DNA of 64,000 bases from Candidatus Dormiibacterota bacterium (GTDB lineage Bacteria > Chloroflexota > Dormibacteria > Aeolococcales > Aeolococcaceae). The notes beneath the pieces are model-generated. The model was given only the letters and a program-made list of their open reading frames with translations. It ran no database searches and had not been told where the DNA came from. Numbering within the stretch: the first letter of the stretch is position 1; each line of letters opens with the position of its first letter. The position numbers and the translations under genes are program-made. Shown here piece by piece: positions 14,433 through 64,000 of the stretch. Where the stretch lies: assembly GCA_963819095.1 (NCBI GenBank), contig CAWFUO010000012.1, positions 145,701 to 209,700 of the forward strand, in the 5' to 3' direction.

Positions 14433-17400
14433 TCAGCCTGTCACGGGCGAGAGCGCGGCCCATCTGGCTTCGACGCGACGGACGTGCGCGACCCCTGCGG
14501 GACCCCGCTTGCTCTCGTACAGCGCGACGGCGCGCCTGGACTGCTCGAATGCGCCGTTGATGTCGCCCGACAGGTACAGCACTTCGCCGAGGGCGAGGGA
14601 TGCCTGGGCAATCTCCATCGGTGCCTGGGTGGTTGCGGCCAGATCAACTGCATGCTGGGCAAGGCCCATCGCCTCTTCGAAGCCACCACTGCGCGCGAGG
14701 AGCTTGGCGCGGACGCCGAAACCGGCCACCTGGGTCAGGATGTCCCCGGCTCCTCCCAGCTCGAGGCCCCGAAGCACCCAGTGTTCGGCCTCCTCAAGAC
14801 GACCGAGCGCGTACAGCGCCTCAGCGAGCTGGCAGGCCGACGTCGAGAGCCAGGCGCGTTCGCCCATCTGCTCGAGCTCATCAACACCTTGCCGAGCAGC
14901 GCGCTCCGCGGCATCGAGATCGCCGGCCAGGGTTTCGATCTGCCACGCAGCCTGCATCACAATCGCGGTCCCGGTGACCATCCCCCGTTCGCGCATCTGA
15001 TCGAGGATTTCGGCAAAGAGGACGCGTGCTTCTGCGTATTCCCCTCGGTACGCGAGAACGAAAGCCTTCCATACAGCGAGAATCGGCTGGAAGCCGCGGA
15101 GCTCCTGCAGCTCCTGCGCGAACCAGACCAGCGCGTCATCAAATGGGACTGACCCGTTGGCCATCGCCGCCGAGCGAAGCGCCGGCGACGCCGTGGCCGT
15201 CCAGGACACCTCCGCGTCACGTGCATGCTGCGCGACGCGCGTTGACGCCTCGAACGATGCATCGAACCGGCCCCGGTAATGCTCGACGAACGCAGCTGCG
15301 GCTTCGAGCGTTGCCAGGGAATCCTTGTCCCCGCTCCGTTCGATGACGGGCCGGGCTCGGTCCACCAGCGCGCTCATCTCGTTCTCGTACGTTTCGGGGT
15401 CGAGGTTTGTTCGCCAGACGACGCCGATCAATCGCGCCTGCAGCGCCCGAACCTCCAGGCCGGCCGACTCCGACCGATCCGCTGCCCGGTCAGCACGAGC
15501 GATCGCGTCGCTCAGCCTGCCAACCATGCCGAGCGCCTGGATGAGCGCTTCCTCGAGGGGGAATGCGATCTCGCCATCAGGAAGGAGGAGTTCCGCCCGC
15601 TGCAGAAGGTTGATCGTCGCGCTGGTGTCGCCCCGGTCCAGCGCGCGCCTGCCGGCGGCCTGCAGTCGCTCTGCGCCGGCGGTCGCGAGCGCGCGAGCCA
15701 CCGCGTCCACCGGTCCCAACTCGGCGCGATACCGGAACGCCTGCTCGAGGTGATAGCCGGCAATCTCATCCAGCTCCTCGAGATCGCCGCCGTGCTGGAT
15801 CAGCCACTCGGCAAACCGCGCGTGCAGGTCGGCACGTTCTGCTTTGGGCAATGAGTCGTACGCGGCGTCGCGGATCAGAAGATGACGGAAGGCGAAAGCG
15901 TCCTCGCCCGCGAAGACCGGGCGGTCGGGACGCAGCAGATCCTTGCGCACCAGGGTCATCAGCCGCCCTCCGACGTCGTGTTCCTCAGGTGCCATCACCT
16001 CGACCGCGCCGCGATGAAAGGACTGTCCTTCGACCGATCCGCGCTCGAGCAGACCGCGGTCCTCGGGTCGCAGCTGATCGAACCGTGCTGCCAGCAGTGC
16101 CTTGATGTTCGGTGGAACGATGACGTCGTGGTTGGTTGACTCCCGGACCATCGCGACGATCTCCTCGACGAACAGCGGGTTTCCGGCAGCTGTGACGCGA
16201 ACCCGGTCACGCAGCTCCGGCGGGATGTCACCGCCGGCTGGAAGCAGCTCATCGATCAGCGCCTGCGTGTCGGCCGCATTGAGCGGTTCGAGCAGCACGG
16301 TGGTGGCGTTGAGCTTTCCACCGCCCCATCCAGGGCGCCGGTCGAGGAGCTCCGGCCGGCCCAGGCACAGCACCAGGATCGGCGCGCCGCGACTGAAGTC
16401 ACCGATATGCTCGATCAGATCGAGGAGAGTTGGCTCACCCCAGTGCACGTCATCAAGGACGATGACCAACGGTTTCGCCTCCGCGGCAGCCTCGAGCAGC
16501 TTGCGGACGGCCCACGCGATCTCGGTCGATGACGTCGTGATGCCGGCGTCGCCAAGCAGAGCCTTGATCGGTGTGGATACCGCGCTGTCACGCTCCAACA
16601 GCGCTGCAGCTTCGCCGGCCGTCCCGCCGAGCAACTGCTTGACCATCGCGATCACCGGCCAGTAGGTGATGCCCTCGCCATACGACAGGCAGCGTCCGCG
16701 CAGATGGGTTGCGTCGATGCTGCCGAGGAACTCCGCGATGAGCCGGGTCTTGCCGACGCCGGCGGCGCCGAGGACGGTGAACATGCTGCACGACCGTCCG
16801 TCGACGACATTGGCGAACGCGTCGTTGAGCATGCGGAGGTGCGTTCCCCGCCCGACCATCGGACCCTCGATCCTGTGGCCTTTGTCGCGCTCCTCAGCGC
16901 CCAGCGCCACAAAGCGGTACGCCGACACCGGGAGGCTCTTGCCCTTCAGCTCGAGCGGCGCGAGCGGCTCGACGGTCACCGCGTCACGGACCAGCCGCCA
17001 CGTCTCGGGACCGATGATGATCTCGCCCGGTGCAGCCGCCTGCTCGAGACGCGCTGCCAGGTTGACCGCATCGCCCGTGGCGAGCCGCTCCTCCGTGCCG
17101 GTGACGACCTGCCCCGTGTTCACGCCTGTCCGCACCGTCACAGTGGTTCCGTAGTCGCGTTCGAGGTCGCTGTTCAGAACCGTGAGCGCATCGCGCAGGC
17201 CCACCGCCGCGCGGACGGCACGCAGCGCGTCGTCCTCGTGCAGCACCGGCACACCGAAGACGGCCATCACGGCGTCGCCGATGAACTTCTCCACCGTCCC
17301 ACCATGCTGTTCGATGACCTTGCGAGCGGCGTCGAAGTAGCGGCGCATCACCTGACGGAGGCTCTCCGGATCCAGCCGCTCGCCCATCGCGGTCGATCCG

Positions 17401-17537
17401 GTGACGTCGCAGAAGAGCACGGTGACGGTCTTGCGCTGCGCTCTCGGGGCAGATGTGATCGTCAGTGGCGCGCCACAGCCGTTGCAGAACCCCGCGTCCG
17501 CGGGGTTTTCCCTGCCGCAGTTGGCGCACGTGGTCAC
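14433..17537 (-). CDS. zinc-ribbon / class III adenylate-guanylate cyclase / AAA(NB-ARC-like) ATPase / TPR STAND protein (1034 aa, intact)
   Basis: CANCGRENPADAGFCNGCG zinc ribbon. Cyclase domain VTVLFCDVTGST..FIGDAVMAVFG. P-loop LGAAGVGKTRL. Long TPR-like C-terminus. No LuxR HTH seen. Confidence 0.85.
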   Translation of the reverse strand: MTTCANCGRENPADAGFCNGCGAPLTITSAPRAQRKTVTVLFCDVTGSTAMGERLDPESLRQVMRRYFDAARKVIEQHGGTVEKFIGDAVMAVFGVPVLHEDDALRAVRAAVGLRDALTVLNSDLERDYGTTVTVRTGVNTGQVVTGTEERLATGDAVNLAARLEQAAAPGEIIIGPETWRLVRDAVTVEPLAPLELKGKSLPVSAYRFVALGAEERDKGHRIEGPMVGRGTHLRMLNDAFANVVDGRSCSMFTVLGAAGVGKTRLIAEFLGSIDATHLRGRCLSYGEGITYWPVIAMVKQLLGGTAGEAAALLERDSAVSTPIKALLGDAGITTSSTEIAWAVRKLLEAAAEAKPLVIVLDDVHWGEPTLLDLIEHIGDFSRGAPILVLCLGRPELLDRRPGWGGGKLNATTVLLEPLNAADTQALIDELLPAGGDIPPELRDRVRVTAAGNPLFVEEIVAMVRESTNHDVIVPPNIKALLAARFDQLRPEDRGLLERGSVEGQSFHRGAVEVMAPEEHDVGGRLMTLVRKDLLRPDRPVFAGEDAFAFRHLLIRDAAYDSLPKAERADLHARFAEWLIQHGGDLEELDEIAGYHLEQAFRYRAELGPVDAVARALATAGAERLQAAGRRALDRGDTSATINLLQRAELLLPDGEIAFPLEEALIQALGMVGRLSDAIARADRAADRSESAGLEVRALQARLIGVVWRTNLDPETYENEMSALVDRARPVIERSGDKDSLATLEAAAAFVEHYRGRFDASFEASTRVAQHARDAEVSWTATASPALRSAAMANGSVPFDDALVWFAQELQELRGFQPILAVWKAFVLAYRGEYAEARVLFAEILDQMRERGMVTGTAIVMQAAWQIETLAGDLDAAERAARQGVDELEQMGERAWLSTSACQLAEALYALGRLEEAEHWVLRGLELGGAGDILTQVAGFGVRAKLLARSGGFEEAMGLAQHAVDLAATTQAPMEIAQASLALGEVLYLSGDINGAFEQSRRAVALYESKRGPAGVAHVRRVEARWAALSPVTG

Positions 17538-19988: not shown

Positions 19989-25375
<5,387 letters not shown>

Positions 25376-25999: not shown

Positions 26000-27136
26000 T
26001 CACGGTAGCGCAGCAGACGTGTCCCCAGGATGGCGCGGAATGCCCTCCGAGACGCCGCAGAGAATCTCGTGCGGCAGGGTGCCGGTGAGGTCCCCGACCT
26101 CGTCCGCGCCGATGCGCACCCCGTCGTGCTCGCCGATGAACATGACGGTGTCGCCGGGCTCGACACGGTCCAGGTCGGAGACGTCGACGCCGACCTGGTC
26201 CATGCTCACGATGCCGGCAATCGGGCAGCGCCGCCCGCGAATCGCCATGTGCCCGCGGTTGGAGAGCGCGCGCGGCAGACCCTGCCCGTAGCCGATGGTG
26301 GCGGTAGCGATCCGGCGCGAGGTTTCGGCGCGCCACGTGCGCCCGTAGCCGACGCTCTCACCGCGCGCGACCGTGCGCACCTGGGCCACCCGGCAGAAGA
26401 CGTTCATCGCGTGCCGCAGCGACGCGGGAGCGGGCACCGGCGGGTAGCCGTAGAACGCGATCCCGGCGCGCACGAGGTCGTGGTGCATCGCGGGATGGGC
26501 CAGGATCGCGGCGCTCCCCGACGTGTGCAGGATCGCGTCCGGCGCAACGGGCCGGAGGGCCTCGACCGCCTCGAGGAAACGGGCGTGCTGGGTGACGGTG
26601 AAACCGATGTCCGCGGCCGCGTCCGCGAAATGCGTGAAGAGCCCTGCCACCTCGATGCGATCCCCCGCGTCGCGCACCGCGTCGACGAGCGAGTCCACCG
26701 TCTCCGGCAGGGCCCCGAGCCGGTGCAGACCGGTGTCGATCTTGAGATGGACGCGTGGGCGGCGCCCGGCCGCGGCTGCCGCCACCGCACGGATCCCATC
26801 AGCATCGAGAACGCTGATGTCGACCCCTGCCGCGACCAGGTCATCGAGTGTCGCGGGCGGGCTCCAGCCGACAACGAGCACCCGCGCGTCGAACCCCGCG
26901 GCCCGCAACCCGAGCGCCTCCTGTGGCGTGTACACGCCGAGCCACGTCGCGCCGCCCGCCAACCCAGCTCGCGCTGCGATGGCCATGCCGTGCCCATAGC
27001 CGTTGGACTTGACCATGGCCATGACCTGCGCCGGCCTGACGAGGGTGGCGATGATCTCGGCGTTCCTCGACAGCGCGGCCACGTCGACCTCAACCCATCG
27101 AAGCTCCGTCGCTCGTTCCCGGCCCTCAGCGCCCAT
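26000..27136 (-). CDS. alr: alanine racemase
   Basis: VKSNGYGHG PLP-lysine motif. 378 aa intact. Confidence 0.9.
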   Translation of the reverse strand: MGAEGRERATELRWVEVDVAALSRNAEIIATLVRPAQVMAMVKSNGYGHGMAIAARAGLAGGATWLGVYTPQEALGLRAAGFDARVLVVGWSPPATLDDLVAAGVDISVLDADGIRAVAAAAAGRRPRVHLKIDTGLHRLGALPETVDSLVDAVRDAGDRIEVAGLFTHFADAAADIGFTVTQHARFLEAVEALRPVAPDAILHTSGSAAILAHPAMHHDLVRAGIAFYGYPPVPAPASLRHAMNVFCRVAQVRTVARGESVGYGRTWRAETSRRIATATIGYGQGLPRALSNRGHMAIRGRRCPIAGIVSMDQVGVDVSDLDRVEPGDTVMFIGEHDGVRIGADEVGDLTGTLPHEILCGVSEGIPRHPGDTSAALP

Positions 27137-29831
27137 CGGACGCAGCGCCCTTCAGTTCAGGACGCGTCCCGACGGGGACAGCCTCGGGAGCCGGCGCCGC
27201 GACGTCCGCCGGGGCGACCCGGCGGACCAGGCCGAAGGGGGTCTGCTCGTCCGACTGGCCGAGCGGGTTATCGGCAATCATGGCCAGAACGGACTCGGCG
27301 TCGATTCCTACCGACGCGAACACCTCGGCCGCCATGTCGTTGGCGTCGATGATCGCGACGCCGACACGGCGTCCCGTACGCCGGCGCAGGTCGGCGGCGA
27401 TGCGCAGCGCCGCACCCGGCGCATCCTCCGGTGATTTGGTCGCCCACCTGTCGTAGGGCGGAAGGTTCAGCGACGAGGGGCCGTCGATCGCGTTGACCCC
27501 ATGCCCCGCCACACGATAGAAGACGCCGCGCATGCCCAGCGGCTTGGTGACCGCGGCCGCGGCGGCAGCCAGCAGGATCCGCCCGGCACCAGCCTCGTCG
27601 ATGGCCAGTTGCATCGTGGTCGGATGGGCGAGACCGACACCGGTCGGCTCGTGGCTCACATAGCGTGAGAGCACGCGCGCCGTCCTCGACACCGCGATCT
27701 CGTCGATGGGGAACGAGCGACCCTGGCTGATGGCCAGTGCCTTCTCGCTGACCAGCAGGACATCGCCGTCCTCGACGGTGATCTCGTTGGGCAGGCGTTC
27801 GAGGCTGGCGCCGATCGCCTCGAGCAGATCGTCGCCCGGCTTGATGAGCGTCGATCGCAGCGGGAACCGCGCCCAGATCCGTCCCCTGTCCTCGAGGAAC
27901 AGGTGCCGGCCCCAGTTGAGGTGCGCGCCGTCGAGGAGCGCGTCGCCGTTGGCGATCTTCTTCGCCGCCGCGCGATCGCCACGGCGGACGAAGCCGCCCT
28001 CGTAGCTGTGCTCGTCGAGCGCGCGCGTCTTGCCGTCGATGTAGACACGCAGCCACACCTCCGCGTTGACGGCGCGCCAGAAGAACATCGACTCCTCGAC
28101 CTCACCGGCGCACGCTCGCCGGAAATTCTCCGCGACCGCCGCGGCTTTCCAGTACGGACGGGCGCGAAACGACGGTGAGCGCATCAGGCTCTGCAGCACC
28201 GCGCGCTGCCGCCGGTACCAGCGGAACTCCGGAGTGGTGAATCCGATCTTCTTGCGCCGCGCCTCGACCTTGCGCGGCAGCACACCATGCAATGCCTGGC
28301 GCACGATGGCGCGTGTCCACCCGTTGTGGATGATCGCGGTTCGCGGCAGCGTGAGGATGTAGTCCACCAGCTCCTGGTCGAGGTAGGGCAGGCGGGCCTC
28401 GAGCGAATGCGCCATCGAGGCGCGATCCTCATAGCGCAACAGCGGGGGCAGGCTGTAGGTGCGGAAGTCCTGGAGCAGGCGGCGCTTGAGGTCGTCGGCC
28501 ACGCGGTCGTCATGCGGCGCCCTGCGCCCTCGCGTGAATGACGGCGAGAGCATCCCCGCGACGTCGACCCGCTGACCGCGCTCACGCAGACGCCGGCGCA
28601 CCAGCGGGGTGACGATGTCGCGGAGCAACCATGCCTCACGCGCGAACTCCGCATATCTGCGTTCACGGAGGAGTTGACGAAGCAGCACATACGGGTAGTG
28701 GTCATATCCCGCCAGCAGCTCGTCACCGGCCTGACCGTCGAGCGTGACCGTGACCTGCCGCCTGGCAAGGCGCATCACCATCCACATCGCGAACGGCGCC
28801 GACGACACCATCGGCTCCTCCATGTACCAGACCCACGCTTCGAGCTCGCGGATGAAGTCCTGGTCGGTGGGCTGCACCTGGCTGTTGTCGGCGCCGGTCA
28901 CCTTGAGCACGCTGTCGATGTAGGTGCTCTCGTCGATGCGGTCACCGGGGAACACCGCCGAGAACGTCTTCAGGCGGTCGCCGAGCGACTCGGTGTCGCG
29001 AACATGGTCGTGCAGCTGCTGCGCCATCACCGTGCAGATGGACGATGAGTTGAGTCCGCCGCTCAGGCAGATGCCGACCGGGACGTCGGCGACGAGCCGG
29101 CGCTGCACCGCGCGCTCGAACACGGCACGGAATGCCTCAGGGCTCGCATCGCCGTCCTCCGAGAGCTGCGGCGTCCAGTACGTCGACTCGGCGATCGTGC
29201 TGCCCTCGATGACGGCGAATGCTGCGGCAGGAACCTGGCGGATGCCGCGAAAGAACGTGCCGTCGTTGTGGTCGAAGAGGCCGAAGCGAAGGTATTCGTA
29301 CATCTGCTGCTCATCGACCTCGCGCGGGAACGTCTCGTCCTGGAGGATCGCCTTGATCTCCGAGGCAAAGACGACGCGCCCGCGGTGGCGCGCGTAGAAC
29401 AGCGGCTTGATGCCGAAGTGGTCGCGCGCCAGCACGAGCCGCGGCGTCGTGCTGCGCTCGTCGAGAATCGCGAGCCCCCACATGCCGTTGAAGCGGCGGA
29501 AGCAGTCGGTTCCCCACTCCGCGTACGCGTGCAGCACCACCTCGGTGTCGCACGCCGTCTGGAACGTGTGTCCCAATGCCTCGAGCTCGACTCGCAGCTC
29601 GCGAAAGTTGTAGACCTCGCCGTTGTAGACGATCTGGAGCCGGCCATCGTCCATCGACATCGGCTGCGCACCGTGCTCGAGATCGATGATGCTGAGGCGC
29701 CGGAACCCGAGCGACGCGGTGGCATCCTCGAAGTGACCGTCATCGTCCGGACCGCGATGCCGGAGCGAGATGGTCATCAGCTCGAGCAAGGCGCGGTCCG
29801 GCGGACCCCAGAAACCGGCTATCCCGCACAC
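27126..29831 (-). CDS. asparagine synthetase (glutamine-hydrolysing) fused to a C-terminal CofE-like (F420-0:gamma-glutamyl ligase-like) domain, 901 aa
   Basis: N-terminal MCGIAG Ntn-amidotransferase and SGGLNSS PP-loop synthetase domains (~620 aa). A ~280-aa C-terminal extension follows, with GDVLLVSEKALAISQGR and IIDANDMAAEVFASVG resembling the CofE fold. Confidence 0.8.
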   Translation of the reverse strand: MCGIAGFWGPPDRALLELMTISLRHRGPDDDGHFEDATASLGFRRLSIIDLEHGAQPMSMDDGRLQIVYNGEVYNFRELRVELEALGHTFQTACDTEVVLHAYAEWGTDCFRRFNGMWGLAILDERSTTPRLVLARDHFGIKPLFYARHRGRVVFASEIKAILQDETFPREVDEQQMYEYLRFGLFDHNDGTFFRGIRQVPAAAFAVIEGSTIAESTYWTPQLSEDGDASPEAFRAVFERAVQRRLVADVPVGICLSGGLNSSSICTVMAQQLHDHVRDTESLGDRLKTFSAVFPGDRIDESTYIDSVLKVTGADNSQVQPTDQDFIRELEAWVWYMEEPMVSSAPFAMWMVMRLARRQVTVTLDGQAGDELLAGYDHYPYVLLRQLLRERRYAEFAREAWLLRDIVTPLVRRRLRERGQRVDVAGMLSPSFTRGRRAPHDDRVADDLKRRLLQDFRTYSLPPLLRYEDRASMAHSLEARLPYLDQELVDYILTLPRTAIIHNGWTRAIVRQALHGVLPRKVEARRKKIGFTTPEFRWYRRQRAVLQSLMRSPSFRARPYWKAAAVAENFRRACAGEVEESMFFWRAVNAEVWLRVYIDGKTRALDEHSYEGGFVRRGDRAAAKKIANGDALLDGAHLNWGRHLFLEDRGRIWARFPLRSTLIKPGDDLLEAIGASLERLPNEITVEDGDVLLVSEKALAISQGRSFPIDEIAVSRTARVLSRYVSHEPTGVGLAHPTTMQLAIDEAGAGRILLAAAAAAVTKPLGMRGVFYRVAGHGVNAIDGPSSLNLPPYDRWATKSPEDAPGAALRIAADLRRRTGRRVGVAIIDANDMAAEVFASVGIDAESVLAMIADNPLGQSDEQTPFGLVRRVAPADVAAPAPEAVPVGTRPELKGAASDGR

Positions 29832-54104: not shown

Positions 54105-54863
54105 TCAGTGAGTGGTGAACCGAATTGAGTTCACGACGCGGCTCAACGCAGCCCGATCAGCTTGAGAGGTATCAGGTGAGTACGTTGCGTCCACAACCAG
54201 ACGCTGACCCTTGACGTCGAGGACCCACAACCGGTCGACCTGGCCGGGGACCTCCTCGTAGCGGTCGTTCTCGGTGTCGTCCTTGGCAAACCAGCTGACG
54301 AAGTCGCGATCGACGCCGTCGGAACCGAGGTCGCAGGTGTCGAAGTCGGTCCAAGTGCTCGATTTCATGTCAGCGGGAACCGACCACTCGAGATATTTGC
54401 CCGCGTATCCGCCGAGGGTGGCGTCAGTCGGCGTGGTGGCGTTGCGCATCTTCTGGGCGACGAACGCGGCAACGAGGTTTTCGACGCTCGGCCCCGGGTC
54501 GAACTCCTGGCCCTGCCAGTGGCACGGGTCGCGGACGACCTGTCCGACGTCCCACACACTGAGGCCCAGCACCGGCCTGCGCTGTCCTGTCTCGGGATAC
54601 TTGTCGACGAATGCGGCACCCAAGTCGAACCACCCGGCGGGCACGACCACGGTGTAGCCGGAAGTGCCGCCCGCCACTTGCAGTGCGTGCGTCCCGGCCC
54701 GGAGGGTCGTGACGCCGGGAGCGAACGGAGCAGTTGGCGTCTGCGCGGGCGTTGTGCCCGGTGAGGATCTGGAGGTCGGGTCCGGGCTTGCCGTGCATCC
54801 GCTTGCCAGAAGCGCGGCGGCCGTGACGGCCACGAGGGTGATGGCGCGCGATCGATCATGCAT
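54105..54863 (-). CDS. hypothetical lipoprotein
   Basis: MHDRSRAITLVAVTAAALLASGC lipobox. Confidence 0.5.
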   Translation of the reverse strand: MHDRSRAITLVAVTAAALLASGCTASPDPTSRSSPGTTPAQTPTAPFAPGVTTLRAGTHALQVAGGTSGYTVVVPAGWFDLGAAFVDKYPETGQRRPVLGLSVWDVGQVVRDPCHWQGQEFDPGPSVENLVAAFVAQKMRNATTPTDATLGGYAGKYLEWSVPADMKSSTWTDFDTCDLGSDGVDRDFVSWFAKDDTENDRYEEVPGQVDRLWVLDVKGQRLVVDATYSPDTSQADRAALSRVVNSIRFTTH

Positions 54864-55179
54864 CTTGTTTGTCCTCACGTCGCTCAGCAGGCGCGGTGGC
54901 CACGCACAAAGACACACGTATCAATCTGCCGAGCCACCGACGGCACGACGACGATCTGTGCCGGCGACGAGGCGGTAGCGTTCGACGCCTTCAGCGTGTA
55001 GCCAATCGAGCCTCCAATCGCCAACGCGCTAGCCAGTGCCAGGAAACTGGCCGCCACGCGCGCGGGAAAGGTATGCAGTGTCAGTGCCTGCATGTCTGAG
55101 ACCTCCACGCGGATCCGGCCATCAGCGGTCTGTCGATCCACACCCCTTCTGCGCCAGAAACCTTCTGGCGACGCCAGAC

Positions 55180-55285
55180 GGTCACGCGCAAGGAGCGGTT
55201 GCGCGACATGGTCACGCGCGACGGGCGGGAGCGCGAGCGCAACAGCGTCACGCGCGACGGGCGGGAGCGCGATACGGCGCGCAGC
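55180..55285. repeat. three tandem ~36-nt direct repeats (GTCACGCGCGACGGGCGGGAGCGCGA core) preceded by two palindromes
   Basis: The 26-nt core is perfectly duplicated at 55211-55236 and 55248-55273, with a degenerate copy at 55181-55206. Palindromes TTCTGCGCCAGAA and TCTGGCGACGCCAGA lie at ~55147-55178. Confidence 0.75.
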
Positions 55286-55286
55286 C

Positions 55287-58059
55287 CTATCGTCGTGCTG
55301 GAGACGACCTTCCCGAGTGCTCGTTCGCGAAGAGCCAACTGGTCGGTTCGGCGGGGTCGTAGACGCAGAACGTGCCGGTCCGCACCGATCGGCGCAGGTG
55401 TCGGCCCAGTGCCGGATGCGACACCTCGATGTGGCTGAGCGCGTCGCGGATGCGCCCGGTGACGGCCTTGCGTGCCCGCTCGGCAGGGTCGAGAACCAGT
55501 CGGGATCGACCGCCCAAACCAACCGCCGCTGCAAGCTCGGCGAGGAGGAAATCGTGCTCAGCTCGGGCACGGCTCGCTCGCTCAGGATCGTTATCGGCCT
55601 CAGCGTCGGCGATCTCCTCCGCGAGGTCGGCGAGACGCGCTCGGTATTGAGCCCGCGCCTCCGCATCGAGCGCCTCTCCTGCGTTGGCCTCAGTCCCGAA
55701 CCCCAACCCCGAGGCCGCAGCGCCGCGTCCGGCATCGCTCGGACGATCCCTGCTTGCGAGATCGACGGCCGCGATGCCCTTGCCGGGTGAGGCGAGCAGC
55801 CACGCGATGTCGTGCAGCCCTTTGCTGTCCTTGGCGCGCACCAGGACGCCGCCATACGTCAGCGACCAGTAATCCCCCTCCTGGATAAAGGCGTTGTCAC
55901 CACTGCCCATGGCGCCAGGTGCCGGAAGCATGGTCTGCGGCAAGCCGGGATCCAATGGCGTCGTCTCGCCTCGACCGAATCGCACGGCCTCCGCCAGCGA
56001 CATTTCCGCCCCATGGCGCAACAACGTGTCACAGAGGTCATCGCCAAGCAGCGTCCGCGCATCGCGCTGCGTCATCTCAAGCCACTCTGCTTCGCGGCGA
56101 AAGATCACCCCCAAGCGCTTGAGCAACTCACTCGCCGCACCGACGAGCCGAAGATAGCGCTCCGGACCCTCTTCGCTCACGACGGCGATCCGCGCCAGTC
56201 CGACCAATGCGTAGGCCGCGTCAAACCGGTCGCCGAATTGACCGCCGATCTCAAGTTGCTCCTTCCAGTTGACCGCGGCTGCTGCCTGCGCACCGCGCTC
56301 GAATTCGATGCAGGCGAGCGTGTCGAGCATGGATCCGCGTTTCAAGCGATCGCCGATAACGCGGGCCATTTCGATGCCTTCCTCGACCGTCACGCGTGCC
56401 GCGGCGAGATCTCCTGCCAGGAAGAGTGTGTAGCTGCGGGCCGCCAGGAAATCCACAAGAGCCACGCGGTCGTCCGCTCGCCTCAGATGCGGCTCCGCTT
56501 GTGCGAGGAGCGGCAGCGTGCGCGCAGCCCAGCCGTCAGCGCTTTCGATGGACTCGATCAGCGCCAGATGGTGCAGCCCGCGGCCAATGCACAGATCGCT
56601 ACCCAACTCCTCGGCGAGCTCGAGGCATTCCTTTCCGAACCGGCGCGCCTCGTCAAACGCCCCGCAACGAGTGGCCCATGCCGTCGCCTGATCGAGTGCG
56701 TGAGCTCGCAGCTCGTCTCGGGTCGCGTATATGTTCAACGCTCTTCCCAGCCACTCGCGGCCCTCGGCTGGGCTGTTGACGAACCAGTAGCGCTCCAGCG
56801 CGAGACCGAGCGATAGCGCTGCCCGAGGACGATTCGTCAGCGCCCAACCGAAGCAGGCTCTGAAATTGTCCAGCTCGTCCACGACTCGAGCCATCCCCGC
56901 AATCTGGCTCGCTCCTCGCAGCTCTCGAGACACGTCATCGCCAAAAGCGAAAAAGAAATCGGCATGGCTGCGACGCGCGGCGTGGACCTCATCGGCTTCC
57001 GAGAGACGATCGAAGGCGTACTGCCGGATGGGTTCGAGCAGCCGATACCGTCCAGAACGACCAGCATCGTGTTGAGAAGTCAGCAATGACTTGTCGACGA
57101 GGCTTGTGAGCGTCTCGAGCACGTTGATGGCGGTTGCCTCGAGGGCATCGGCATTACACACTGCCTCCGCAGCCCCCAACGGGAAACCGCCCGCGAACAC
57201 GGCCAGCCGTCGGAACAGCTCGCTGCTCTTCATGGCCCAGCAGGCCGTGGCTCCAGTCGAACGTGGCCTTGAGCGTCCGCTGTCGCGGCATCGCGACACG
57301 CGAGCCTCCCACCAGAAGCGTGAACTGATCGTCGATACGTTCAGCGATTGCATTGATCGACATGCTCCGTAGACGTGCCGCGACAAGCTCGATCGCCAGG
57401 GGGATTCCGTCCAATCGCTGGCAAATCCGGGCTGTCGACGATGCGTTGGCATCCGAGACGCGAAAACCCGGACGCGCCGCGTCCCCACGTTGCATAAGCA
57501 GCTGGACCGCTTCACAGCGCTGCAGGTCTTCCAGGGTGTAGGGGCGCTCCGGGTCCGGAGTGGCCATGGAAGGGACCGGCCACGTCACTTCACCATCAAC
57601 TCCGAGCACTTGACGGCTGGTCGCCAGGATCCGTAGCCCGGAGCAGTGCTTCAGGAGCTCGCTGGTTAACTGTGCGCACGCGTCAACGAGATGTTCGCAG
57701 TTGTCCAGAACGCACAGAACGTCACGTGCCTCCAGAAAATTCATCAGTGAATCTATCGGTGGCTTCACGGGATGGGTCATGGAGCCAAGTGCCGTGAGCA
57801 TCGTCTGCGGGACAAGTTCAGGATCTACCAGCCCCGCGAGTTCCACGAGCCAAACACCGTGCTCATACTCGGAGACCAGCCTGGACGCCACCTCGAGTGC
57901 GAGCCGCGTCTTGCCGATGCCGCCCGCGCCGGTGAGGGTGACCAGATGCGCCCGAGACACCACCTCGGCAATATCCTCGACCTCAGATTCGCGTCCAACG
58001 AAGCTTGTGAGCTGAAGCGGCAGGTTCGTCCGCTCCGGGCCATGAGATGTCGAGGGCAT
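55287..58059 (-). CDS. STAND NTPase: N-terminal NB-ARC/AAA + winged-helix + TPR array + unrecognised ~250-aa C-terminal domain. One frameshift near 57240
   Basis: FVGRESEVEDI...LTGAGGIGKTRLALEVA P-loop. hhhhDN GxP-like LDNCEH. FRRLAVFAGGFPLGAAEAVC WH. TPR-like helices. C-terminal EGDYWSLTYGGVLVRAKDSKGLHDIAWLL... segment. The two track ORFs overlap 57154-57515 in different frames. Confidence 0.7.
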
Positions 58060-58272
58060 CCGGCCACTCCCTACCTACGTTGAAACGCGATCGTAGCTCT
58101 GTACCGGGCGGGAGTCATCACTCACGGTGCAGACGTGCCGGTCTGTCGTTCGCCGCGGAGGCGTGGTGAGGCGGTGCGGCGGCTTGCCGAGGCGCCGCGG
58201 CCGCACGATCTGCCCCGAACTCAGTGCACCAGGCCGACGAACCTCCTCTCCCCATCACCCACGCGCGAGAGG

Positions 58273-59547
58273 CTAGGCCGGCGCCCGCGGCAACGTCCAC
58301 GACTGGTACGTGTGCGACGGCGGGATCACCAGGACCCGCTGCCCGTCGGACTTGACCAACCGCCAGCCGCCCTCATGCACATTCCAGTGATGTCGATGGC
58401 AGAGCAGCACCATGTTCGGCACGTCGGTGACGCCGCCGTGGCCCCAGAACAGGACATGGTGCGCGTTGGTCCAGGAGGCGGGCCGATCGCACCCGGGCCA
58501 GACACATCCCTTGTCGCGCACGCGCAGTGCGGTCCGCCCAGCCCCTGATGGCACCCGAAGCGTCCGTCCCACATCGATCACCGCGGAATCAGCACCCAGC
58601 AGCACTCGCCGGATGCTCGCGTCGCAGGCGAGCCGCTGCACCGTCGCCGCCGGCACAACCCCGGCGAACTCGAGGTCGCCCCCGGGCGCGCCGACCAATC
58701 CCCTCACGGTCTCCACTGAGGCAGTGAGTTGCAGATGGGTGCGGGTCGCGCCCCTCTGCGTGGTGAACCCATGGTCGAGCGAGTGCATGGCAAGTTCCAC
58801 CAGGCCGTCGGCCAAGCGACGGGCACGGGAGCGCTCGTCGCCCACACCAACGCGGCGCGACAGCTGCTCAACCGCAACCCGAACAGCGGCGCCGCCCACA
58901 GCGTCGAGCAGTCCACGAAAGGCAAGCCGGCCGTCCTCACACTTGGAGAACTCGAGGCGCCGGGACTCCACCGACGACACGTTCTCGGCGAGCACCGCAG
59001 CGGCGTCGCCCACATGGCGCGCGTGGTCGCAGTCGTACCCAAAGGCGCCGACCGAGTGCTCAATCGCAAGATCGAGCAATGGGCGCTCCTGGAAGGTCCC
59101 CGTCGCCTTGAGGGCCCGCTCCGTACTCGCAAGCAGCGCGAGGTGCGCGAACCCGATTCGCCCCTCCTCGAGTGCGGCGACACTCGCCGGAAGGTGCTCA
59201 GCCTCCTCGCCGGTGGTGAGCGACCGGCCCGCGGCGCCGCCGGCCATGCGGCATTGATGGCGGATCCAATTGAGCGGCGAGGTCGACCCCTGCGCCGCGG
59301 CTTCGTCGGTGGCAGCGAACGCGGCCGCCTCGCGCCCGAAACGGAGCTCGAGGAGATCGATGCCATGGCGGAGCCGGATCAGGCGCTCGCCGAGCTCGAA
59401 CGGGGTGACGTCACCGGCCGTCGTGGCAACGAACAACTCGATGCCCGACAGCAGCCGTTCGAGCGATCCGGCATTGTCCTCGCCATCACACATTTCCGTA
59501 GTATATACAGATCCGTGTACGTGGAGGCCATAGCGAACCCCGCCCAA
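58273..59547 (-). CDS. DUF222 + HNH endonuclease domain protein (REP13E12-like family)
   Basis: N-terminal DUF222-like region. C-terminal HNH: CVWPGCDRPASWTNAHHVLFW...LCHRHHWNVHEGGW. Confidence 0.8.
   Translation of the reverse strand: MGGVRYGLHVHGSVYTTEMCDGEDNAGSLERLLSGIELFVATTAGDVTPFELGERLIRLRHGIDLLELRFGREAAAFAATDEAAAQGSTSPLNWIRHQCRMAGGAAGRSLTTGEEAEHLPASVAALEEGRIGFAHLALLASTERALKATGTFQERPLLDLAIEHSVGAFGYDCDHARHVGDAAAVLAENVSSVESRRLEFSKCEDGRLAFRGLLDAVGGAAVRVAVEQLSRRVGVGDERSRARRLADGLVELAMHSLDHGFTTQRGATRTHLQLTASVETVRGLVGAPGGDLEFAGVVPAATVQRLACDASIRRVLLGADSAVIDVGRTLRVPSGAGRTALRVRDKGCVWPGCDRPASWTNAHHVLFWGHGGVTDVPNMVLLCHRHHWNVHEGGWRLVKSDGQRVLVIPPSHTYQSWTLPRAPA

Positions 59548-62255: not shown

Positions 62256-64000
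<1,745 letters not shown>

Follow-up and report, generated by a model that had tools for sequence, protein, structure and literature searches.

A frameshifted STAND ATPase gene of a Dormiibacterota bacterium ends in a domain of a very large, unnamed family

The gene STAND-X was analyzed in a 64,000-nt stretch of a Candidatus Dormiibacterota genome (GenBank assembly GCA_963819095.1, contig CAWFUO010000012.1, positions 145,701–209,700; hereafter the window). It occupies 55287..58059 on the minus strand, as do all window genes below at their own coordinates, and has 923 codons plus a stop after repair of a +1 frameshift. The gene encodes an NB-ARC-type STAND signal-transduction ATPase whose core is itself ordinary. 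The C-terminal domain, here termed X, is a member of a very large, still unnamed domain family.

The core was assigned using Pfam, sequence motifs and structure prediction. Pfam places AAA_22 and NB-ARC at aa 28–243 of the window protein (NB-ARC at 27.2 bits against a cutoff of 23.5) and gives a weak TPR_12 match. An alignment of 47 sequences gave a full-length AlphaFold model of the intact ortholog P0121 at pLDDT 81.4. The model begins with a P-loop nucleotide-binding domain at aa ~20–165 (57565..58002), which includes the Walker A P-loop GAGGIGKT (aa 44–51, 57907..57930), the Walker B motif VLDNCEH and the sensor motif ATSR. Positions in these motifs and in GIPLAIEL are invariant in 47 orthologs, among them G44, G46, G47, G49 and K50 of the P-loop. 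A helical domain (aa ~176–250) and a winged helix (aa ~258–340, HTH_77) follow at 57039..57534, and then a TPR-like alpha-solenoid of 18 helices, or about nine repeats, at aa ~342–695 (55974..57035), the presumed sensor arm. Orthologs carry precomputed matches to HTH_77 (PF25872) and TPR_MalT, the latter weak in P0121. A disordered linker at aa 700–719 leads to the terminal domain at aa 722–910.

The best PDB fold match of the P0121 model is the PH0952 STAND-TPR protein (6mfv, E = 1e-11 over 726 columns), and the next are Apaf-1, CED-4 and plant NLRs. What STAND-X has in common with the PH0952-type archaeal and bacterial STAND-TPR proteins and the NB-ARC clade is a P-loop domain, a helical domain and a winged helix with a TPR solenoid next. 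None of them carries X, and PH0952 has no characterized output. P-loop motifs, helical domain, winged helix and C-terminal repeat arm, which define the NB-ARC/AP-ATPase clade, are all present. A first-pass annotation, made from the letters alone, had described an N-terminal NB-ARC/AAA P-loop, a winged helix and a TPR array, all borne out by Pfam, motifs and model; it had also seen no LuxR or BTAD DNA-binding domain, and Pfam matches neither.

Domain X spans aa ~722–912 (55323..55895). The terminal ~200 residues of the window protein have no match in Pfam, NCBIfam or PADLOC, and X is unnamed in two Pfam versions (a local 2025 release and a precomputed set that includes HTH_77), NCBIfam 20.0, PADLOC and PDB. 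The ~250-residue C-terminal region once called unassignable is so indeed, and the folded domain is smaller, at ~190–200 aa. A Pfam scan of 96 X homologs found no HTH (helix-turn-helix) family even at E ≤ 10, and neither these nor the window protein match Trans_reg_C or BTAD. The motifs of X were found in no paper of the literature library searched. Scans of GTDB and metagenomes for the source genome or closer relatives gave distant matches only.

The family is widespread. A word-indexed search returned more than 550 homologs, up to 84% identical, and a profile search of 1.84 billion cluster representatives (clusters at 50% identity) returned 17,648 clusters at E ≤ 1e-3, 14,035 at E ≤ 1e-10 and 7,223 at E ≤ 1e-30. 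The match ends at the protein C-terminus almost always. The window gene has the architecture NB-ARC/HTH_77-TPR-X (~900 aa), and the commonest is AAA_16-TPR_MalT-X (~1050–1130 aa). Others are AAA_16...cyclase-X, receiver-cyclase-X, receiver-X, FHA-X and stand-alone X. Carriers occur in Actinomycetota, Chloroflexota, Dormibacterota, Myxococcota, Binatia and Bacteroidota, and cultured ones include Streptomyces rimosus, Streptomyces sp. KN37, Nonomuraea gerenzanensis, Embleya and Chondrinema litorale (Bacteroidota). Their labels in source annotations and RefSeq are generic ("AAA family ATPase," "TPR protein," "adenylate cyclase," "hypothetical").

An AlphaFold model of X from 96 sequences reached a pLDDT of 85.7, and its secondary-structure elements are alike in the X-alone and full-length models. 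The N-terminal part has strands at residues 5–10, 13–18 and 21–26 of X and helices at 29–39 and 47–52. A linker at ~55–80 is variable, disordered, poorly conserved and modeled with low confidence. The C-terminal part has a long helical hairpin (82–104/108–128), a Gly-rich loop GLGGRxR, helices at 141–163 (basic, with ERARKAVTxRIR) and 165–174 (short), and a beta-hairpin (180–183/191–195) with RTGTFCVYDP..W. The helical hairpin is strongly acidic (mean net charge −5.3), and segment 129–163 is strongly basic (mean net charge +4.9) with R134, R136, R144 and R146 invariant.

The STAND-X gene is broken in the window. Two minus-strand ORFs (open reading frames), 58059..57154 (301 aa) and 57515..55287 (742 aa), overlap in different frames, and three-frame translation shows one protein passing from frame 0 into frame +1 near ...WSHGLLGHEEQ and ..FRRLAVFAGGF..., inside the winged helix. 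Alignment of the gene DNA with two orthologs, L007 (83% nucleotide identity) and L008 (78%), traced the break to a C inserted at 57218, where codon 280 meets codon 281: alignment column 842 is gapped in both orthologs, and the window has CAGCGAGCTGTTC where they have CAGCGAG-TGTTC. This is the only frame-breaking difference; the alignment also has one in-frame 6-nt insertion. Removing the C restores ...GHEEQRVFRRLAVFAGGF..., and the repaired 923-aa protein runs ...EEQRVFRRLAVFAGGF.... The single frameshift reported by the first-pass annotation was thereby located to the base. The source annotation holds only a 637-aa fragment, P0122.

The window copy is either recently inactivated or mis-sequenced. 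The inserted C lies outside any homopolymer, and the source annotation's fragment call is in line with a real lesion. Independently, the syntenic L007 ortholog (L007:9509-12274) has an in-frame TGA in place of TGC at codon 128, the position of Cys128 in the window. Selenocysteine at this TGA was considered and rejected; the column is not conserved among orthologs, and the change was judged a nonsense mutation. Nine flanking genes were compared, and all are intact and of nearly equal length in both assemblies, so two random errors that both fall inside STAND-X would be unlikely; a rough estimate is (2.8 kb/14 kb)^2, about 0.04. Independent lesions with intact flanks therefore speak for two genuine mutations and for ongoing loss of STAND-X from this locus.

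Other observations weigh against a dead gene. There is only one lesion in 2.77 kb. The ratio of nonsynonymous to synonymous divergence (dN/dS) is 0.126 between the window and L007 and 0.175 between the window and L008, and STAND-X was therefore under purifying selection until very recently. The L037 ortholog (L037:6001-8618), from a long-read-style sibling assembly, has at least four frameshifts, and the adjoining lipoprotein gene is also broken; these lesions suggest recurrent decay or long-read indel errors, and such errors do occur in data of this kind. An independent assembly of the same strain, L044, is 99.96% identical and does not cover the frameshift site. A protein split into a 279-aa P-loop part and the rest is unlikely to work, yet the frame may simply be mis-called. 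On balance, a real frameshift in a recently dead pseudogene without current function is slightly favored.

STAND-X is followed by a small ORF of 69 aa at 54884..55093, annotated as gene P0381 in the source genome. Its product opens with the conserved tail MQALTLHTFP, contains a single hydrophobic helix and closes with C-x8-C, the last residues being GHRAC. STAND-X orthologs of 67–84% identity, intact ones at 78% identity among them, occur in at least four genomic contexts (the window with the fully syntenic L007; L008/L009; L037; L038), and a small ORF of 66–75 aa lies directly 3′ of STAND-X in all of them (L007:12466-12693, L008:12889-13101, L037:8904-9116 and L038:7799-7999). Those in L008/L009, L037 and L038 were found by position. 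The family shares the tail MQA..TL.TFP, one hydrophobic helix and a C-x8-9-C ending GH..C. Homology search recovered only three proteins at E ≤ 0.01, one of them the window's own, and Pfam has no match. A RiPP (ribosomally synthesized and post-translationally modified peptide) system, in which a HaaT or FxSxx-like TPR protein would act with the small peptide, was rejected: the HaaT and FxSxx-COOH TPR models score 62 and 51 bits, far short of their cutoffs (1125 and 300), on the nucleotide-binding oligomerization domain (NOD) only, and no radical-SAM or other maturase adjoins any STAND-X ortholog.

The orthologous loci share ~95 nt of conserved DNA sequence between STAND-X and the small ORF. 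In the window, this conserved non-coding block (55095..55185) contains TCTGGCG twice as a direct repeat, 20–21 nt apart with its complement in between, so that three copies of TCTGGCG/CGCCAGA fall within 27 nt (55152–55178); a hairpin and a GGAGG Shine-Dalgarno sequence follow. In L038, the most diverged locus, both direct copies read CCTAGCG, a concerted change, and the predicted first hairpin is broken, which favors a protein-binding operator over an RNA structure. A structured RNA upstream of the small ORF was rejected on this broken hairpin, the lack of an Rfam match and almost no covariation. The block is a possible operator for the adjacent regulator STAND-X. Downstream of the STAND-X stop, with no strand assigned, are tandem 36-nt repeats at 55162..55263, in three copies each with CGCGTGAC and overlapping inverted repeats. 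They are most extended in the window, with fewer copies in L007 and about one in L008. Intergenic repeats had been noted on first pass, and they do exist.

A promoter-like block of ~60 nt lies upstream of the start codon (58060..58119), with the arrangement GATGACTC..N..GAGCTACGATCG..GGTAGGGAGTGGCCGG-ATG. It is conserved in the window, L007, L008 and L037, and DNA further upstream is unrelated. Its hexamers TGACTC...TACGAT resemble −35 and −10 elements and GGGAG a ribosome-binding site, as assigned by eye; a consensus promoter scan found none. Together with STAND-X, the promoter block, the repeat block and the small ORF make up a cassette that differs in composition from its surroundings and has changed its place in the genome. 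The cassette has a GC content at third codon positions (GC3) of 0.71–0.73, compared with 0.85–0.90 in flanking core genes, and about double their synonymous divergence (dS). A wider stretch, 54105–59547, from the lipoprotein gene to a DUF222 gene, has GC3 of 0.71–0.81 and dS to L007 of 0.35–0.63; for the genes flanking it the values are 0.82–0.90 and 0.24–0.33.

The partners of X were used to ask what it does. The closest paralogs of the STAND-TPR core carry, instead of X, LuxR, BTAD plus Trans_reg_C, XRE-HTH, cyclase, kinase or TIR domains. The position of X is therefore the usual one of DNA-binding outputs, as the LuxR- or SARP-type outputs of the closest paralogous cores show. In one operon a HAMP-HisKA kinase is followed by a receiver protein and then by receiver-cyclase-X, and in one locus a receiver-X gene adjoins a receiver-GerE gene. 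In L011 (L011:3744-8930), an FHA-X gene lies 48 nt past the gene for a 1402-aa Ser/Thr kinase-AAA_16-TPR protein. This pair appears to be a non-covalent version of the STAND-X fusion, with the STAND core reaching X via phosphothreonine docking. The small ORF that accompanies STAND-X is not conserved at FHA-X loci, and the 71-aa neighbor in L011 is unrelated to it. The AAA-TPR-X protein WP_003979995.1 of Streptomyces rimosus, annotated "AAA family ATPase," lies beside a KAS/ACP/P450/thioesterase/AsnB cluster.

STAND-X is best read as a signal-transducing regulator that resembles MalT and AfsR but has another output domain, one not described before. X most likely binds DNA and so regulates transcription, at a probability of roughly 0.55. 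By analogy with MalT/LAL proteins and AfsR, a ligand or partner on the TPR arm would trigger ATP-dependent opening and oligomerization of the switch. Oligomerization would then free or cluster X, which would act. X would bind DNA, touching the nucleic acid with its strongly basic, invariant segment GLGGRxR-ERARKAVTxRIR. Its first ~50 residues may be distantly related to the front half of OmpR/SARP winged helices. As a target, the foremost candidate would be the adjacent gene for the 69-aa membrane peptide, which has heptamer direct repeats two helical turns apart upstream. A bolder reading, less likely than not, is that X is a new nucleic-acid-binding module made of an OmpR-like front half, an acidic hairpin and an Arg-rich helix; this undescribed output domain might be switched by STAND oligomerization, receiver phosphorylation or FHA-phosphothreonine docking, and might here control the small membrane peptide via the heptamer repeats.

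The evidence for an OmpR-like front half comes from fold and profile comparison. OmpR-family DNA-binding domains (CosR, KdpE, SaeR, PhoP, ArlR) make up 10 of the best 50 Foldseek PDB matches, on the first ~55 residues of X, at E about 1 and a root mean square deviation of 6–8 Å. The order of elements there matches the OmpR front half (N-terminal beta-sheet, alpha1, short strand, alpha2), and these matches are weak. SARP/OmpR winged-helix profiles were built from the paralogs, and hhalign placed X 15–52 on winged-helix positions 10–47 in the same register (P = 0.05 with a thin profile and 0.016 with richer ones).

Several results weigh against DNA binding by X. X has no significant link to any DNA-binding fold, the best Foldseek PDB match being at E = 0.9, and BFVD holds no significant match either. 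Among 40 control profiles with shuffled columns, two do as well in hhalign, which puts the empirical P near 0.05. The C-terminal half of X lacks similarity to a recognition helix and wing (hhalign P = 0.54), an insert-removed X profile finds no OmpR-family chain in PDB, and X shows no similarity to LuxR HTH/GerE profiles (hhalign P = 0.17–0.24). In OmpR domains the recognition helix and wing are contiguous with alpha2; in X, ~85 residues of disordered linker and acidic hairpin come after alpha2. The heptamer-repeat argument draws on five loci and one diverged lineage, and the target assignment is a candidate one. X directly after cyclase domains would also fit a dimerization or regulatory role. 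The likeness to the front half of an OmpR-type winged helix is therefore treated as a lead and no more. The AlphaFold and Foldseek check suggested by the first-pass annotation thus gave a confident model, and neither a significant fold match nor a known HTH.

Other assignments of X were tried and rejected. A LuxR/GerE HTH was dismissed on the hhalign values above and the absence of a Pfam match in 96 members. A split OmpR winged helix with an ~85-aa insert gained nothing in hhalign from a fused construct; the fused profile found no OmpR-family chain in PDB, designed TPR proteins topped the list by chance, and the weak signal survives in the N-terminal half of X only. Weak matches to DUF4404 and ABC_tran_CTD reflect helical or coiled-coil similarity only.

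Several known regulators resemble STAND-X. MalT/LAL proteins (AAA_16, MalT-like TPR and a C-terminal LuxR/GerE HTH) are likewise built of a switch, then a TPR sensor and then an output at the C-terminus. The weak TPR_MalT matches, the commonest X architecture and the LuxR-bearing proteins among the closest paralogs of the STAND-X core add to this likeness; the difference is that the LuxR HTH is replaced by X, in which hhalign finds no similarity to GerE. AfsR and large SARPs (OmpR-type winged HTH, BTAD, NOD and TPR) have a homologous NOD-TPR core, with paralogs P0185, P0190 and P0191 at 46–47% identity, and the SARP/OmpR domain is what the first ~50 residues of X weakly resemble. The DNA-binding domain of AfsR has been shown to be inhibited by its NOD and TPR, a block that ATP lifts (PMC10936776). 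We infer that the same logic may apply in STAND-X. The AfsR DNA-binding module differs from X in being N-terminal, with a complete winged helix plus BTAD, whereas X is C-terminal and has no detectable OmpR-homologous recognition helix or wing.

EmbR (FHA, OmpR-type winged HTH and BTAD) is the partner of the Ser/Thr kinase PknH. FHA-X, directly after a Ser/Thr kinase-STAND gene, would resemble it in the sequence of kinase, then FHA, then transcription output. It differs in domain order and output domain. Overall, STAND-X is a known kind of STAND protein with an uncatalogued output domain.

The main rival to DNA binding is that X is a non-DNA output or adaptor, with the STAND core still a signaling switch. 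X would then serve oligomerization or scaffolding, or bind a protein partner (RNA polymerase, a sigma factor or the small membrane peptide), a phosphorylated small ligand or a nucleotide. X follows class III cyclase domains, which need dimerization, and has its long, strongly acidic hairpin beside the basic segment. Weak matches of the X profile to coiled-coil hairpins (UvrB C-terminus, RF2 N-terminus, ABC_tran_CTD), and the lack of any detected HTH, fit an adaptor. The Gly-rich GLGGRxR loop and its invariant Arg, Thr, Tyr and His make a possible phosphate-binding site, and the conserved cytoplasmic tail of the small peptide (MQA..TL.TFP) could be a ligand of the TPR arm or of X. In receiver-X and FHA-X proteins, however, X is the only candidate output, and most response-regulator outputs are DNA-binding or enzymatic. 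The LuxR or SARP domains in the same position of the closest STAND paralogs, and the register-consistent OmpR-type resemblance, also count against an adaptor, which we consider rather unlikely.

An antiviral role was suggested by the first-pass annotation, which saw in the ATPase, TPR sensor and unknown terminal module a layout shared by signal-transducing and antiviral STAND proteins. The signaling part of this statement held, as did the unrecognized module; the antiviral part did not. In an Avs-like abortive-infection system, the TPR arm would sense a phage protein, X would be a toxic effector, and the DUF222-HNH gene would belong to a defense island. Besides the layout, the low GC3 and high dS of the cassette would suit an accessory, mobile element, and inactivating lesions in two syntenic orthologs are what costly defense genes might show. 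The variable linker of X has a marginal match to the influenza PA endonuclease (PA-N profile, E = 0.003), which would make X a PD-(D/E)xK nuclease; this was judged chance because the alignment falls on the non-conserved linker and a coiled-coil helix.

Avs antiviral STAND NTPases have an N-terminal effector and a defense-island context. STAND-X shares with them a STAND ATPase and a TPR-like sensor arm. It differs in having no N-terminal effector (the P-loop domain begins at aa ~20) and no PADLOC match beyond mad8 (E = 0.003), which covers the P-loop only in the window protein. Neighbors are housekeeping or signaling genes in every STAND-X or X locus inspected, so that orthologs do sit in non-defense contexts, and no confident match of X to a known HTH accompanies this. 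Of the two findings that the first-pass annotation had named as refuting its view, one was thus obtained. X is partnered with receiver, FHA and cyclase domains in kinase operons, it lacks a conserved catalytic-type constellation, stand-alone X genes have no obvious immunity partner, and a BFVD fold search found no viral structural relatives of X. With DUF222 also absent from the L008, L037 and L038 contexts, an antiviral function is very improbable.

The DUF222 gene itself (REP13E12-type, 58273..59547) is the upstream neighbor of STAND-X and lies outside the cassette. Pfam supports DUF222 (E = 3e-14); HNH models do not match the gene, whose C-terminus is HNH-like by eye only. The adjacency to a REP13E12-type DUF222-HNH gene reported on first pass therefore holds for DUF222, and for HNH by eye only. 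The gene is beside STAND-X in the window and the syntenic L007 only. It is regarded as a neighbor and not a partner, because it is adjacent only in this syntenic pair, and a functional link to STAND-X is not supported, with orthologs in three other contexts lacking it.

The window is otherwise a housekeeping region. Around STAND-X and the small ORF are the atp operon, APH, acyl-CoA dehydrogenase, DUF222, lipoprotein, mycothiol S-transferase (MST), DeoC aldolase and murA genes, and farther away are glmS, groEL, asnB, uvrD, ligA, uvrC and a gene for a cyclase-AAA_16-TPR protein. The last, the first of the window's two STAND proteins, is a 1034-aa ORF (14436–17537) with class III cyclase, AAA_16 and MalT-like TPR domains; it has no X and no LuxR match. 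A UvrD-type helicase ORF of 1113 aa (22037–25375) probably carries an intein, as Intein_splicing matches aa 386–630 (E = 2e-8) between the helicase domains. A 901-aa ORF (27129–29831) joins asparagine synthase (GATase and Asn_synthase, aa 28–595) to F420-0:gamma-glutamyl ligase (aa 658–836); this would be an unusual fusion, unless two genes are joined here by read-through. The ATP synthase beta ORF (62256–63923, 555 aa) has an Ala/Pro/Thr-rich, low-complexity C-terminal extension of ~80 residues; its L007 ortholog has 542 aa.

This analysis corrects a tempting mis-assignment of STAND-X to antiviral defense. With at least 14,000 clusters at 50% identity, X would be among the more abundant unnamed output domains, if it is indeed an output domain. 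Its carriers include regulators beside biosynthetic gene clusters, and once its function is known, an output could be assigned to many thousands of signaling proteins of the STAND, response-regulator, FHA and cyclase types in soil bacteria.

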